This document shows, in pieces, positions 12,280 to 35,512 of a DNA stretch of 64,000 bases. Under the pieces are notes generated by a model. The model saw only the letters and a list, made by a program, of their open reading frames with translations. It had not been told where the DNA came from and ran no database searches. Origin of the DNA: a virus; IMG/VR virus record IMGVR_UViG_3300021400_000072; one strand, given 5' to 3'. Every line of letters starts with the position of its first letter. Position 1 is the first letter of the stretch. The position numbers and the translations under genes were made by a program.

Positions 12280-12466
12280 TATCTTCTTCTCCTTTTAATA
12301 AATAGAGTAATATATCTTTGGCATTATAATTAAAAATATGATAAGGATAAAAACTAAAAACATTATTAAAAATTTTACATTCATGTTTCCATTTACATTT
12401 ATCTTCTTCACATTTACCACCATTATAACATTCAATACACATAATTATAAGATTATAAGGACTCAT
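12272..12466 (-). CDS. Small Cys-rich protein (about 64 aa)
   Basis: GGAGG 6 nt before ATG. MSPYNLIIMCIECYNGGKCEEDKCKWKHECK... Overlaps the pol stop. Confidence 0.35.
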   Translation of the reverse strand: MSPYNLIIMCIECYNGGKCEEDKCKWKHECKIFNNVFSFYPYHIFNYNAKDILLYLLKGEEDNE

Positions 12467-15400
12467 TATTTTCCTCCATTCCATATCTTGCGGAAGCTAG
12501 TTCAATCCTTCTCCCATTTACATTCGTTATCAAATAAAGCTGGTGCCCGCCTGTGCTTTTATATTTCTTAGCTACGAAAGTATCATCTCGTCTATAACCT
12601 GTAACTAAAAGTTTATTACCACGAGTAAACCAACCTTTTTCTTTTACTTTTTTAACTCCTTCTTCATTCACTTCACTTATCTGTCTATTGAACATTGCAT
12701 AATAATCACGAGTAAATTTAACATTAACAGTTCCTGTTGGTGTTAAAAGTGTAACTATATGACGGGTATCATTTTTACCGATAACAGTTCCCGCAATCCT
12801 TTGTAACTTATAAATAGGAATTTGTTTTCCATTACGTTTAAAGAAATAATCTACTACAGGAGTTGAAGAAAGATTATTAAAATCTACGATACCATAAAAA
12901 TTATTATCAATATTTTTTAACTCATGGTCGTGATAATAGAAACATAATGATTTCATTTCCCAGAAAGAAATATTTCCTTCTGCATATTTATTCCATTCTT
13001 CTTCAAAAAGTTTTAAATTTAATTGTTTTAAAACTTCTTGTTGATTAGACTGTAACCAGTTCCGCACTTTATCCATTACTTTTGAATAAATCTTATCCCA
13101 TACCTTTTGTTTTATTACAAAACAATTATTTATAATTTCAATATTCTCCATATCAAAATGGTCGGAATAAAAATTCATACCGTTTTGGTCAGGCATTACA
13201 TAATAATCTTGCCATTTTCTAGCTTTTAAATATTTATTAAAATAATAAATAGTTTTTTCAAAATCTAAAGATTTGGGTAAAAGGTTATAGTTAATAAGAG
13301 TTGACATATTTTGAAGATTTAAACGGGTTTTAGGATTACTAGTTATAGATAAATAATAAACCATAGTCCAAGTACGTGGATCAATATTAAGAGATTCTGC
13401 ATCTTCTTTTGATAATTCATCAAAAGCACCAGCTTTAATTAAACTAATCATTGCTGTTTTATTTAACTTACATCTATTCATAAAATCTTTAATAGATACG
13501 TATGGACGGTTTTGTTTAATCTGGTCAACAACAGATGCACCTACATTACTTAATGCTTTCATACCGAATAAGATTTGATTATTTTCTACATCGGGTTTAA
13601 AACCATAATCTGATTTATTAATATCTACTAAACTAACTTCAATACCCGCATTAATAATTTCACCTAATGCTTTTGCAACCTTACCATAATCAGTCGCATT
13701 TTCTTTTTTCTTAATAGGAGTATCATCTTCATCATATTCAATATCATCTTCTTCCTCAAGGCTTCCGCTATTTACTACAAGACATGCGGCATCCCAATAA
13801 ATTGGACTCCAATGTGTAGCAATATAAGCAGTTTGAAAACCGATAAAGCTATAAGCTAAAGCGTGAATAATCGAAAAAGAATATCCCATCTGAGGACCGA
13901 CGCCATTTTCCCACACATATTTCCCTAATTTTTCTGAAGTGGCTTGGGTTAAAATTTTCTGACGTAATTCAGGAATTTTACTCATTTGCTTTTTACCGAC
14001 AATTTTACGGGCAGCGTTAGCTTCCGCAAGAGTAAAATGACAAATATTTTTATCCATAAGCATTAACATTAATTGCTCCTGGCTGGGCGGGACTCCATAA
14101 GATGATTTAAAATATGGAATCAATGTTTGTTGCTCTTCCTTTGTTAAACCTGCGGAATCCATTTCTTTATACCAAAGATCAAGATTATTTTTAAAACGAA
14201 TATATTTTTCCATAGGTGTTTCTGCTCCCTTTTCCGCAGTCATTAATCTCATAAGACCATTGGCGTCCGTTAATTCAAGAATTGTTGTAGGTTTAATCTT
14301 TTTAGCAGCTTGACTACCAACTTCTGAATCAAACTGGAATACATTTATTACTGTACCATTTTGAATTGCTTTCCATACATCTTTATCGTTTATTGGTAAA
14401 ACATTTGGATGGAAATATTTATCATATACAGGGCGTAAGTTAATTCCTGTATCTTCAATTATACCATCTTCTTGTAAAAACCTAATTGCTTGAGCAAGTT
14501 TGTCTTGAACTTCTGTAACCAAAAAATCATATTTAACAAGACCTGCGGCTTCACAATCATGTAGATCGTACTGTGTAATTATTTCTCCTTTTGGAGTTTT
14601 CATAAAACATCCAAATTCATATGGATCTTCATCGAAAAGAATTACACCAGAAGCGTGACTACTACGTTTATTTACAAGACCAACAATACCAAAAATAATA
14701 TCAAGAAGTCCTGGATATTCATTTACTTCCTTAACAAAAGCATGAACAGGTTCTCTATCTTTATCTTTATTACCATTTATAACATCTTCAAGAGGCCATA
14801 AAAATCCTCTCTCTGAAGGAATTAATGATGCTATATATTGTGCTTCATCGTTATCAATTCCATCTGGGAATTCTTCTGACCTATATCCGCGGCAGGCTGT
14901 AAGAACTGCGGACTTCGTCTGTTCTGTACCATATGTAGCTACTAAGGTACAACCTAGATTCTTTCGAGATAAATCATCTATATCAGGATTGAACCTACTG
15001 CCGCGCTCTTCTTTTATCTTTCTTACTATTGTTCCTTTTTTCGATGGACATATATCAATATCAATATCACCTAATTCAGTTCTTTCATCATTCATATAAC
15101 GAAAGAAAGGAAGGTTCCATTCAATTGGGTCAAGCTGAGTAATACCTAAAAGATAATGATTTAATGCGGCACATGATGAACCTCTTCCGGCACCGACAAG
15201 ACTTCCGCATTCCCATATCATATCAATATAATATTTAAGTGTAATAGGATATTTAAACATGTTTGTTCCAAGTTTTTCTCCTATTATTCTTTTTACTCTT
15301 GCTTCTTCTTCAAGTTCTTTTCCATATTCTGGAGTTAATAAATTCTTTTCTCTACAAGCATTAAGACATTCATTTACCCAGTATCTATCATAAATATCCG

Positions 15401-33371: not shown

Positions 33372-33627
33372 AAACAGGACAATATCTTATAGAAGGATAA
33401 GAATATGTACTATAAATAATTTTATCGTTTATATATCCATCATAAAACCATAACCAATATTTTTGAGATTTTATATCAAAAACTATTGTCGTTGTTCTAC
33501 CATTTTTTGGAATAAAATCTTTAGGAACTTTTTCTATATCTTCAATTTCTTCAATATTCTTACAAAAGCTACATGTAGATTGATTTAATTTTATCCAATC
33601 TTTTTCAGAAATTTTCTTACTCAGCAT
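33328..33627 (-). CDS. Zinc-ribbon protein, 99 aa
   Basis: CSFCK...CPVCG. Confidence 0.4.
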   Translation of the reverse strand: MLSKKISEKDWIKLNQSTCSFCKNIEEIEDIEKVPKDFIPKNGRTTTIVFDIKSQKYWLWFYDGYINDKIIYSTYSYPSIRYCPVCGKILRKETTHNAE

Positions 33628-35512
33628 TATAAGTAGCCTCCCTACTGTGGTCTTTAATAAAATTCTTTCTTGGAATAATAGCAGTTCCCATCAAATCATC
33701 AAATAGTTTATCTGTTTCTTCACTATCATCAATTGTAATTTGTTTAATAATTCTATTGTCAGGATTCGTAAGAGTTTCTTCCGTTTCTTCAACATCCATT
33801 TCTCCTAATCCTTTAAGTCTATTTACAGTATATTTACCACTATAAGTAGATTTAAATTGCTCAAGAGCGGCATCATCTTTAAGATATTTATAACCTTTAT
33901 TTCCTGCTAATGTAATTTTATAAAGAGGTGGAACTCCCGCATAAATAATGCCGTCATAAAATAATTGTGGACAGAAATTCCAAATAAAAGTATAAAATAG
34001 ATTTTTAATATGAGAACCGTCTACGTCAGCATCACTCATAATAATAATTTTACCATAGCGGAGTTCATCACGATCATATGTAACCCGCATTGTTTTTGAA
34101 TCAATTTTTAAACCAAACGCTTCAATCATAGTCATAATTTCAGCATTTTTTTGAATTTTATCTAACGTAGCTTTTTGAGTATTAAGAATTTTACCGCGAA
34201 CAGGCATTACCGCTTGAAATTCATTATTACGAGCAGTTTTAAGATTACCTGATGCTGAATCACCCTCTGTAATATAAATTTCACATTTTTCTCTATCTTC
34301 ACTATAGCAATCCGCAAGTTTACTATCAAATTTTAAAGCCTTTTCTTTTTTCTTTCCTTGCTCTCTTGCTTTTTCTCTTGCCTTCTTAGCAGCTTCTCTT
34401 GCTTTCTTAGCGTTAATAGCTTTATCTGCAATAAGTTTAATTTCCTTTTCGTTATTGGCTAACCAATATTGAAGATTTTCCGTTAAAGCTACATTAAATG
34501 GCTTCATATCAATTTTCGTAATACGACTTTTTACCTGTGCATCGTAAGATACATTAGGTGCAGTAATATTAAAAACGATATACATACCTTCTTGAATATC
34601 ATCACCAGTTAAATTTTCATCCGTAGATTTAAGCCATTTCTTTTCTTTAAAAAATTTGTTAAATTCACGAGTAATAATAGATTTTACCTGAGTAATATGC
34701 TGTCCTGTCTCTGTTAGACCTGTATTGACATATGGAACAATAGTAGAAGAATAATTGGATGTATAAGTAAGAACCATATCCATTTTATTCTTACCTTCTG
34801 CAAAATTCATATCAAATCTATTATTAATAAGTTCTTTATTGCCTACTGCGGCATCAACTAAATCATTTAAACCTTTTTCAGATACATAATTATATATTTT
34901 ACCGTTTTCATTTAAATAAATCGTTAATCCTGGACATAAGCAAGAAATAGTTTTAAATAAAGAATGAATTTTTCCACTCTCCACTTCAGTATGTGTAAAA
35001 AATTCTTCTGAAGGCTGCCATTCTACCAGTGTGCCAGATACACCACCTGTTCCCGTAGTTCTATTATCAAAAACACCTTCTTTAAAATATATCTCTTCCC
35101 ACTCTCCATCTCTTATAGTTTTAACTCTTAACCAATGAGATAAAAAGGTAGTAATTTTGGAACCGATACCAAAAGAACCAAGAGATGTTCCTTCATAAGT
35201 TCCATCTTCTCTATATTTACCAGAAGTATTAAGAACACTAAAAGCAGCTTCAAGAATTGTTTTTCCATCTTCTCTAAAACTGTTACATATAAAACCTTGT
35301 CCATAATCTCGGACAGCTACCATATCTCCAGTTATCGTTACGCCAATGCGATTTCCATTTCCCAAGCGAAATTCATCAACAGCATTAGATATAATTTCTA
35401 CTAATAACTGTGTTGAATAGGTTGTATCGCCTGCATATACTCCAGGACGTAACCGTGTAAATTCCAAGGGGCTTAATGATTCGATACTATCTTCATTATA
35501 AAGTTTTGCCAT
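33617..35512 (-). CDS. Type II topoisomerase B subunit (GyrB/ParE-like), 631 aa; no TAG
   Basis: ITEGDSASGNLKTARNNEFQAVMPVRGKILNTQKA (compare GyrB [33 protein letters not shown]); N-terminal GHKL ATPase. Confidence 0.9.
   Translation of the reverse strand: MAKLYNEDSIESLSPLEFTRLRPGVYAGDTTYSTQLLVEIISNAVDEFRLGNGNRIGVTITGDMVAVRDYGQGFICNSFREDGKTILEAAFSVLNTSGKYREDGTYEGTSLGSFGIGSKITTFLSHWLRVKTIRDGEWEEIYFKEGVFDNRTTGTGGVSGTLVEWQPSEEFFTHTEVESGKIHSLFKTISCLCPGLTIYLNENGKIYNYVSEKGLNDLVDAAVGNKELINNRFDMNFAEGKNKMDMVLTYTSNYSSTIVPYVNTGLTETGQHITQVKSIITREFNKFFKEKKWLKSTDENLTGDDIQEGMYIVFNITAPNVSYDAQVKSRITKIDMKPFNVALTENLQYWLANNEKEIKLIADKAINAKKAREAAKKAREKAREQGKKKEKALKFDSKLADCYSEDREKCEIYITEGDSASGNLKTARNNEFQAVMPVRGKILNTQKATLDKIQKNAEIMTMIEAFGLKIDSKTMRVTYDRDELRYGKIIIMSDADVDGSHIKNLFYTFIWNFCPQLFYDGIIYAGVPPLYKITLAGNKGYKYLKDDAALEQFKSTYSGKYTVNRLKGLGEMDVEETEETLTNPDNRIIKQITIDDSEETDKLFDDLMGTAIIPRKNFIKDHSREATYNAE

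Follow-up and report, generated by a model that had tools for sequence, protein, structure and literature searches.

Distribution of in-frame TAG in the window

The present study concerns the use of the amber codon (TAG in DNA, UAG in mRNA) in a 64,000-nucleotide stretch of viral DNA from IMG/VR record IMGVR_UViG_3300021400_000072, which as a whole is referred to as "the window", and in particular the absence of this codon from seven genes for replication proteins: a DnaE-type DNA polymerase III alpha subunit, a superfamily 1 (SF1) helicase, a primase, a DnaB-type helicase, the DNA ligase LigA and GyrA- and GyrB-like topoisomerase subunits. The window has a GC content of ~31% and consists of a minus-strand block (6861-44300) between two plus-strand blocks (1-6860 and 44301-64000). 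Among the top GenBank matches to its DnaE, no phage exceeded 39% identity, and neither a tRNA gene (ARAGORN) nor an Rfam family at gathering score was found in the window.

Open reading frames (ORFs) were called with TAA and TGA as the sole stops, yielding 57 in the window, and in-frame TAGs were counted in each of them. Once TAG was read as sense, ORFs of at least 100 amino acids (aa) spanned 72 kb of DNA instead of 51 kb and the fraction covered by ORFs of 150 aa or more rose from 0.60 to 0.89; reading TGA as sense added almost nothing. TAA is the terminal stop of 44 of the 57 ORFs, and no gene needed TAA as a sense codon to be restored. Pfam domains run across in-frame TAGs in NrdD, RecJ, Sak4, the endolysin and guanylate kinase (Gmk). 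Mixed code use is thus seen directly, as in-frame stops inside genes whose homology continues beyond them.

Together, the seven replisome genes comprise 4,686 codons, 355 of them for Glu, and not a single in-frame TAG, in line with a preliminary description of this DNA that had put the TAG-free replisome at about 4,700 codons. The ratio TAG/(TAG+Glu) of the TAG-bearing neighbours is 0.29 (0.23 without the GIY-YIG endonuclease gene). This rate predicts 80-100 TAGs for the replisome, and the probability of finding none is ~1e-40 to 1e-52. A test for uniform TAG use in the 38 genes of at least 100 codons gave chi2 = 258 with 37 degrees of freedom (p = 5e-35), with 16 TAG-free genes observed and 3.7 expected. 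The partition between the replisome and its neighbours is far beyond chance, and the earlier statement to this effect holds. DnaB belongs to the TAG-free class at the 512 aa given earlier, because the three TAGs of its longest ORF (codons 12, 22 and 24) all lie 5' of an ATG preceded by GAGG, a ribosome-binding site. The previous gene labels agree with Pfam and PHROGs, except for a 68-aa ORF called glutaredoxin, which received no annotation. Most of the previous TAG counts were slightly too high (11 rather than about 12 in RecJ, 4 rather than 5 in Sak4, 5 rather than about 8 in NrdD, 7 rather than about 9 in the endolysin gene); that of the 68-aa ORF was the same (2), and guanylate kinase has 3 TAGs, not 1.

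Table 1. Genes and sites of the window referred to in the text, in order of position
Feature	Position	Strand	Properties and annotation
NrdD; 68-aa ORF (labelled glutaredoxin previously, not annotated here); guanylate kinase	9508-12279	-	5, 2 and 3 TAG, respectively; Pfam
DnaE-type DNA polymerase III alpha	12453-16388	-	1311 aa, 0 TAG, 101 Glu codons; Pfam PHP, DNA_pol3_alpha, finger, HHH_6
Sigma-70-like promoter upstream of DnaE	16422-16450	-	perfect TTGACA-17-TATAAT with TG, no hairpin; sequence
SF1 (Dda/PIF1-like) helicase	16926-18098	-	390 aa, 0 TAG; Pfam AAA_30, UvrD_C_2
Hairpin and T-run, then promoter-like site, downstream of RecJ	18365-18490	-	TTGCAT-17-TAAAAT; sequence
RecJ-like DHH exonuclease	18491-20278	-	595 aa, 11 TAG (31% of Glu sites); Pfam DHH, DHHA1, RecJ_OB
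Hairpin and T-run after primase, with overlapping promoter-like site upstream of RecJ	20319-20367	-	TTGACA-17-TATTAT
DNA primase	20362-21513	-	383 aa, 0 TAG; PHROG 47, E = 1e-38
DnaB-type helicase	21513-23051	-	512 aa from the ATG with ribosome-binding site, 0 TAG; Pfam DnaB, DnaB_C
Terminator-like hairpins around Sak4	upstream 24900-24933, downstream 23827-23864	-	
Sak4-like AAA_24 recombination ATPase	23867-24853	-	328 aa, 4 TAG; Pfam AAA_24
GIY-YIG endonuclease, N-terminal coiled coil	26688-27644	-	318 aa, 22 TAG (55% of Glu sites); Pfam
NAD-dependent DNA ligase LigA	28281-30317	-	678 aa, 0 TAG; Pfam
GyrA-like topoisomerase subunit	30511-32856	-	781 aa, 0 TAG; Pfam
Small ORF g33	32846-33100	-	84 aa, 3 TAG; overlaps both TAG-free neighbours
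GyrB-like topoisomerase subunit	33617-35512	-	631 aa, 0 TAG; Pfam
Small ORF g37	35496-35720	-	74 aa, 2 TAG; first gene past promoter 35752-35780, overlaps GyrB start
Sigma-70-like promoter heading g37-GyrB unit	35752-35780	-	TTGCAT-17-TATAAT
Strong two-way terminator hairpin	35915-35941		12 bp; just past endolysin gene
Endolysin (GH25 + CHAP + GW)	35949-37418	-	489 aa, 7 TAG, three in first 51 codons; Pfam
TAG-free block behind divergent promoter region	37451-44227	-	phosphoesterase, polynucleotide kinase, RNA ligase, vault-like protein, proteins without known function
Tail/structural genes g48-g53	44390-53835	+	63 TAG; 18-35% of Glu sites
Tail/adsorption proteins g54 and g55	53856-62577	+	839 and 2051 aa, 0 TAG, GC 0.34-0.37; PHROG tail families

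Among the TAG-bearing genes are those for long structural proteins (29 TAGs in g02 of 1,560 aa, 18 in g48 of 955 aa). The endolysin gene is the last of an otherwise TAG-free block, and an amber-bearing endolysin at this place fits the idea of gated lysis. The gene for the GIY-YIG endonuclease shows the densest amber use in the window, with 20 of its 22 TAGs within the first 178 codons; its coiled-coil stretch is very Gln-rich, and also Glu-rich if TAG means Glu. Several small TAG-bearing ORFs, g28/g29 among them, appear to share an operon with TAG-free genes, which they overlap or immediately precede, and TAG lies downstream of strong ribosome-binding sites in g28 and g25. Three of the 11 orthologs of g33 contain TAG. 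Within genes, TAG is biased toward the 5' end (16 in the first 30 codons; first-TAG test against random Glu sites, p < 2e-4), and this bias disappears once the first 30 codons are dropped. Either TAG is genuinely enriched in these codons, or wrongly called starts account for part of the signal; homology or a ribosome-binding site backs some of the early TAGs.

The TAG-free block upstream of the endolysin gene has a promoter at 44265-44293 (TTGACC-17-TATAAT) ahead of it, and its freedom from TAG fits an early role. Three consecutive genes of this block at 38274-40386 (-), for the phosphoesterase, the polynucleotide kinase and the RNA ligase, all TAG-free, resemble a tRNA-repair cassette against host anticodon nucleases. 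The vault-like gene g46 at 41124-43625 (-) codes for 833 aa with the shoulder and repeat domains of the major vault protein and has a GC content of 0.385; its CAG:CAA ratio of 26:1 is the opposite of that in all other genes of the window, and it looks like a recent import.

TAG-free genes are also found in the tail region. Genes g54 and g55, located downstream of TAG-rich tail genes on the same strand, contain 2,890 codons, 127 of them for Glu, and no TAG. The closest homologs of g54 (79-89% identical) reside in standard-code contigs (L216-L222; GC 0.35-0.37), and in a contig that is 92-96% identical to the window in DnaE and GyrA the g54 protein is only 65% identical. Based on these identities, g54 was apparently imported from standard-code phages; g55 (GC 0.37) and the vault-like gene are suspected to be imports as well, judging from their composition only.

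Conservation of the partition and its relation to transcription units

Relatives were retrieved from IMG/VR with DnaE, GyrA, a DUF2828 protein and the tail protein g54 as queries, which gave 205 related loci, 81 of them recoded. In the recoded loci, the replisome genes have very few TAGs relative to Glu sites: 1/2,482 in DnaE, 0/504 in the Dda-like helicase (21 relatives), 2/2,242 in GyrA (40 relatives), 3/1,605 in GyrB (32 relatives), 6/1,509 in LigA (31 relatives), 4/719 in primase and 13/1,514 in DnaB. In the same loci, TAG/(TAG+Glu) is 0.05 in NrdD, 0.08 in Sak4, 0.16 in RecJ, 0.18-0.26 in tail genes, 0.24 in the endolysin (12 loci) and 0.34 in the GIY-YIG gene (36 loci). The 78 DnaE orthologs together contain 2 TAGs in 98,481 codons, and recoded relatives show the same pattern down to 60-63% DnaE identity. 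Many relatives use the standard code, with RecJ, Sak4 and other orthologs free of TAG. The location of RecJ and Sak4 is unchanged in these standard-code relatives; they are hence resident genes that gained TAG while their neighbours did not, and not foreign insertions. These comparisons support the view that TAG avoidance in the replisome is kept up by selection. In seven relatives (L062, L064, L066, L069, L072, L073 and L078), the matches to DnaE extend over ~5.1-5.2 kb instead of 3.9 kb; such an interruption of ~1.2 kb, from which the window's DnaE is free, could stem from an intron, an intein or an inserted homing-endonuclease gene.

The preliminary description had placed hairpin-plus-promoter modules at four sites and taken them as plausible transcription-unit boundaries between the two classes of genes. 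Promoter-like sequences exist at all four places; the one upstream of DnaE is without a hairpin, and the one upstream of RecJ overlaps its hairpin at 20334-20367. Terminator-like hairpins form such boundaries for RecJ, Sak4 and the endolysin gene; since TAG-bearing small ORFs (g37, g33, g28/g29) sit within TAG-free operons, transcription units do not generally delimit the classes. As far as can be judged from the placement of these sites, unit boundaries explain only those three genes. No common late-promoter motif was seen by eye upstream of amber-bearing units.

Hairpins were found upstream and downstream of RecJ in 10/16 and 13/16 recoded relatives, respectively, compared with 3/24 and 9/24 non-recoded ones, and in several standard-code relatives RecJ abuts or overlaps the primase gene. 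These numbers, in which the kinship of the relatives (L001-L080) is ignored, hint that RecJ recoding and transcriptional insulation evolve together. Near the endolysin gene, a perfect TTGACA-17-TATAAT at 35818-35846 (+) is aimed at the two-way terminator and could give a transcript of ~90 nucleotides (nt), antisense to the 3' end of the endolysin gene.

UAG as glutamate and its suppressor tRNA

To assign a residue to TAG, the TAG-bearing genes were aligned to orthologs without TAG. Of the 47 conserved columns with TAG, 33 are Glu columns, and these account for 140 of 172 TAG cells. The window's own TAGs fall on 17 conserved columns, of which 16 are Glu, one is Asp and none is Gln. Summed over 43 TAG columns of the window, the log-odds are +62.5 bits for Glu, -66 for Asp and -85 for Gln. 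In an alignment to guanylate kinases of known structure (from E. coli and others), TAG49 of Gmk falls on the conserved Glu of their RPGE motif. The RecJ TAG columns are Glu in standard-code orthologs, and two of the TAG columns of Sak4 show no residue but Glu in the orthologs compared (28 and 33). Alignment of the GH25 domain to solved structures gave no information for two of its three TAGs. By the evidence of these alignments, TAG is shown to stand for glutamate, not glutamine, in the window lineage. TAG per Glu, and not TAG per Gln as proposed in the preliminary description, is hence the relevant measure of amber use.

The sequence is extended rightward by an 87-kb contig (ENA sample ERZ28612966) that matches window positions 53183-64000 with 100% identity. 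The next stretch of that genome (L233), which was reached via an exact DUF2828 protein, carries 25 tRNA genes and a ROOL RNA. Within the tRNA array, at L233 6010-6086, lies a tRNA with a CUA anticodon (Rfam tRNA, 55.6 bits), ~13.9 kb past the window end and on the minus strand in the orientation of the window. Its sequence without CCA is GGCCCGGTGGTCAAACGGTTTAAGACGCTGGTCTCTAAAACCAGAAATCGGAGTTCGATTCTCCGGCGGGCTA. The ARAGORN label of this tRNA, "Pyl", is due to the anticodon only. Isotype hidden Markov models, trained on the tRNAs of the phage family with the anticodon masked, scored it at 43.3 bits for Glu, 31.2 for Asp and 18.6 for Gln; nearest-neighbour tRNA identity gave no usable isotype signal. 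When one genome per bacterial species was scanned with its 5' 25-26 nt, at least 120 loci matched; among the matches listed, almost all were labelled Bacillota, and all 116 tRNAs called there by ARAGORN were tRNA-Glu (UUC in 104, CUC in 12). The cloverleaf has a D stem of 3 bp and a short (~4 nt) variable loop, and the first acceptor pair is G1-U72. A first pair U1-A72 is typical of tRNA-Gln and is relevant to recognition by GatCAB. Because of the isotype scores and the 5' matches to tRNA-Glu genes, the suppressor is best described as a Bacillota-type tRNA-Glu with a CUA anticodon.

A promoter-like TTGATT-17-TATAAT is located 95-120 nt upstream of the suppressor, directly past the preceding tRNA-Val gene, and is kept in relatives L165 and L229. 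A check proposed in the preliminary description, that of the location and promoter class of the suppressor, thus yielded a gene outside the window behind a sigma-70-like sequence. A tRNA(CUA) identical to it at 76 of 77 positions occurs in L165, and tRNA(CUA) genes are also present in L166, L170 and L229. An exact-pattern scan of IMG/VR for the suppressor found two contigs only. A search around DnaE revealed no tRNA in the DnaE flanks of the related loci (159 loci, GyrA flanks included), and the one tRNA found in the GyrA flanks was a tRNA(CTA) with a long arm, from a distant relative of 41% GC.

Other elements of the tRNA arrays were seen as well. The window genome also carries a tRNA-Glu(CUC) (L233 662-738; 44 of 77 positions identical to the suppressor), and no tRNA-Glu(UUC) was found in the stretches of this genome that were read. 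A full-length ROOL RNA (RF03087, 280-286 bits) is encoded among the phage tRNA genes at L233 3032-3624 (~16 kb right of the window end), within a few kb of the suppressor gene, and likewise at L229 495-1087 and L165 1-597. The arrays of relatives L177, L182, L188-L192, L194, L195, L202, L204 and L206 hold Trp-like or Gln-like amber suppressors; one relative has a tRNA with the anticodon TCA and another one with TTA (L166 2186-2257; L203 6558-6632). Several kinds of stop-codon capture may thus coexist in one phage family.

Proposed translational gating, other explanations and known systems

On balance, we think it probable that a translational gate in a mixed code, together with the import of some parts, accounts for these observations. 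The window would come from a rumen or gut phage of ~140 kb, most likely infecting Bacillota, as suggested by the GH25, CHAP and GW domains of the endolysin and the Bacillota-type tRNA-Glu body. UAA and UGA would serve as stops and UAG would be read as Glu by the phage tRNA(CUA), presumably charged by the glutamyl-tRNA synthetase of the host. Because UAG terminates translation in an uninfected standard-code host, a gene with UAG would give full-length protein only after the suppressor has built up in competition with release factor 1 (RF1). Purifying selection would then remove UAG from genes needed in the first minutes (DnaE, DnaB, primase, SF1 helicase, gyrase, ligase and the tRNA-repair/takeover block), and UAG would be tolerated or favoured in genes for proteins that are needed at a later stage or have to be absent at the beginning (endolysin, tail proteins, the homing-type GIY-YIG endonuclease, RecJ/Sak4 recombination and nucleotide metabolism). 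The gate would work gene by gene at translation, with separate transcription units reinforcing it for RecJ, Sak4 and the endolysin only. As the suppressor promoter is sigma-70-like, the delay of amber genes probably results from tRNA accumulation and RF1 competition rather than from late tRNA transcription. A second, historical cause would be that modules recently imported from standard-code phages, such as g54 and probably g55 and the vault-like gene, have not acquired UAG.

Several points weigh against this explanation: its temporal step is drawn from sequence alone; a purely temporal account fails for g54 and g55, and the endolysin-like g57 is also TAG-free; with a host-type promoter, the suppressor may be present very early, and the delay would therefore be short; g05 (4 TAG) lies behind a strong, near-consensus sigma-70-like promoter (7406-7434), so that promoter class does not separate TAG-free from TAG-bearing genes; the tRNA(CUA) that takes the place of the suppressor in L229 (90% nucleotide identity) has a diverged body, for which the isotype score is ambiguous; exceptions occur in relatives (13 TAGs in DnaB of 11 loci, 6 in LigA of 3 loci), so that avoidance in the replisome is strong but not absolute; the recoded loci share ancestry and are not independent trials, although the contrast is nonetheless very large; and gene starts were fixed by a longest-ATG rule. 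The temporal programme put forward in the preliminary description consequently finds backing in the partition, its conservation, the hairpins bracketing RecJ, Sak4 and the endolysin gene, and the fit to a published model, but not in g54/g55 or in promoter class.

Other explanations must be considered. Suppression might carry a cost at any time of infection if UAG decoding were leaky or error-prone, and would then be avoided by enzymes that need high fidelity or full length. The amber-free set does consist mostly of long essential enzymes, and avoidance is graded across the NrdD, Sak4 and RecJ families (0.05, 0.08 and 0.16). However, the late full-length yield cannot be poor, since the very long structural proteins g02 and g48 carry 29 and 18 TAGs, and decoding must be accurate, since TAG occupies invariant, functionally important Glu positions, e.g. 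in the Gmk motif. A time-independent cost is thus an unlikely cause of the partition. It is also quite unlikely that history rather than timing is responsible, i.e., that the amber-free genes were recently acquired from, or exchanged with, standard-code phages or bacteria and have yet to accumulate TAG. This holds for g54 (79-89% identity to standard-code contigs, 65% to the contig with the sister replisome), and the composition of g46 (CAG 26, CAA 1; GC 0.385) is unlike the rest of the window. The replisome genes, however, are syntenic, have diverged at the pace of the family as a whole (56-93% identity), have an ordinary GC content (0.28-0.33) and stay TAG-free in 21-41 recoded loci each, while the RecJ and Sak4 orthologs next to them have acquired TAG at positions that vary.

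That TAG means glutamine (code 15), as in crAss-like and Lak phages, was tried for the window lineage and rejected. In a limited literature search this was the only amber reassignment met for phages, and a few relatives have TAG on Gln columns (L137 and L149) or Gln-like suppressor tRNAs; yet none of the 17 conserved-column TAGs is on Gln, the score is -85 bits against +62 for Glu, and the tRNA body is of the Glu type (Gln 18.6 versus Glu 43.3 bits), which makes this assignment very improbable. The possibility that TAG counts merely track local base composition or gene length is negligible. TAG-free genes are slightly more GC-rich on average, but homogeneity was rejected (p = 5e-35), the primase has no TAG at a GC content of 0.276 whereas g04 (0.336) and g06 (0.357) contain TAG, and the share of GAG among Glu codons is alike in both classes.

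Beyond translational gating in the window itself, we give about even chances to a broader proposal, namely that: in this rumen Bacillota phage lineage, a UAG = Glu code new to viruses and bacteria was installed by a suppressor derived from tRNA-Glu; its family captured amber separately by Glu-, Gln- and possibly Trp-type suppressors, beside standard-code sisters; and amber placement is a selected translational timer. If this is true, the family would be a natural series of independent code switches, phage amber reassignment would not be confined to Gln, and a tRNA-Glu-based suppressor would be workable in hosts without glutaminyl-tRNA synthetase (GlnRS). If gene callers and annotation pipelines apply table 15, conserved and catalytic Glu residues would be written as Gln throughout these genomes. 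Moreover, a natural tRNA-Glu(CUA) could interest genetic-code engineering.

Among known systems, laboratory amber suppressors made from tRNA-Glu likewise combine a tRNA-Glu body with a CUA anticodon, but in E. coli it is mainly GlnRS that charges them, with the wrong amino acid. This enzyme is absent from most Bacillota, and such a host would allow clean insertion of Glu by the suppressor described here. In the peritrich ciliate nuclear code (NCBI table 30), both UAG and UAA mean Glu throughout the genome of a eukaryote. The window phage shares UAG = Glu with this code, but not UAA = Glu, as UAA is its main stop, and UAG serves as a sense codon in only part of the viral genome. For Lak phages, TAG was occasionally seen aligned to Glu and taken to reflect substitutions. 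Amber-to-glutamate recoding in a phage was not met in our limited literature search, which is not proof of its absence. The phAss-1 phage and the proposed Phassvirus group (PMC10607447) have genomes of ~133-138 kb with 28-36 tRNA genes, including a tRNA-Sup(CTA), and TAG in ~28% of their ORFs, structural and some DNA-processing genes among them. By description only, this group resembles the window phage in size, tRNA content and possession of a DNA polymerase III alpha subunit, but its TAG was annotated as Gln, from TerL alignments and tRNAscan-SE, and not as Glu.

The closest precedent is the work of Borges/Peters et al. (bioRxiv 10.1101/2021.08.26.457843), who described recoded structural and lysis genes beside standard-code genes for replication and for the code change itself in crAss-like, Lak, Agate, Jade and other clades, and proposed a translational timer that protects against premature lysis. 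Like those phages, the window phage has its own suppressor tRNA, close standard-code relatives and a heavily recoded homing endonuclease in the early region, and its recoded codons are rich in structural and lysis genes and poor in replication genes, with g54, g55 and g57 as exceptions; in both cases, timing has been proposed from sequence. It differs in that the reassigned codon means Glu instead of Gln or Trp, that the two classes are interleaved gene by gene in one strand block instead of forming large modules, that recombination and nucleotide-metabolism genes are recoded, and that amber is missing from some of the late tail genes, in one case apparently as a result of import. What appears to be new is therefore the assignment of UAG to Glu and the suppressor derived from tRNA-Glu, the contrast of standard-code replication with recoded late genes having been published. 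The partition described here is a further example of that idea, and this phage family is unusually suited to testing it: as ~80 recoded and many standard-code relatives share gene order, RecJ and Sak4 can be compared with and without amber.

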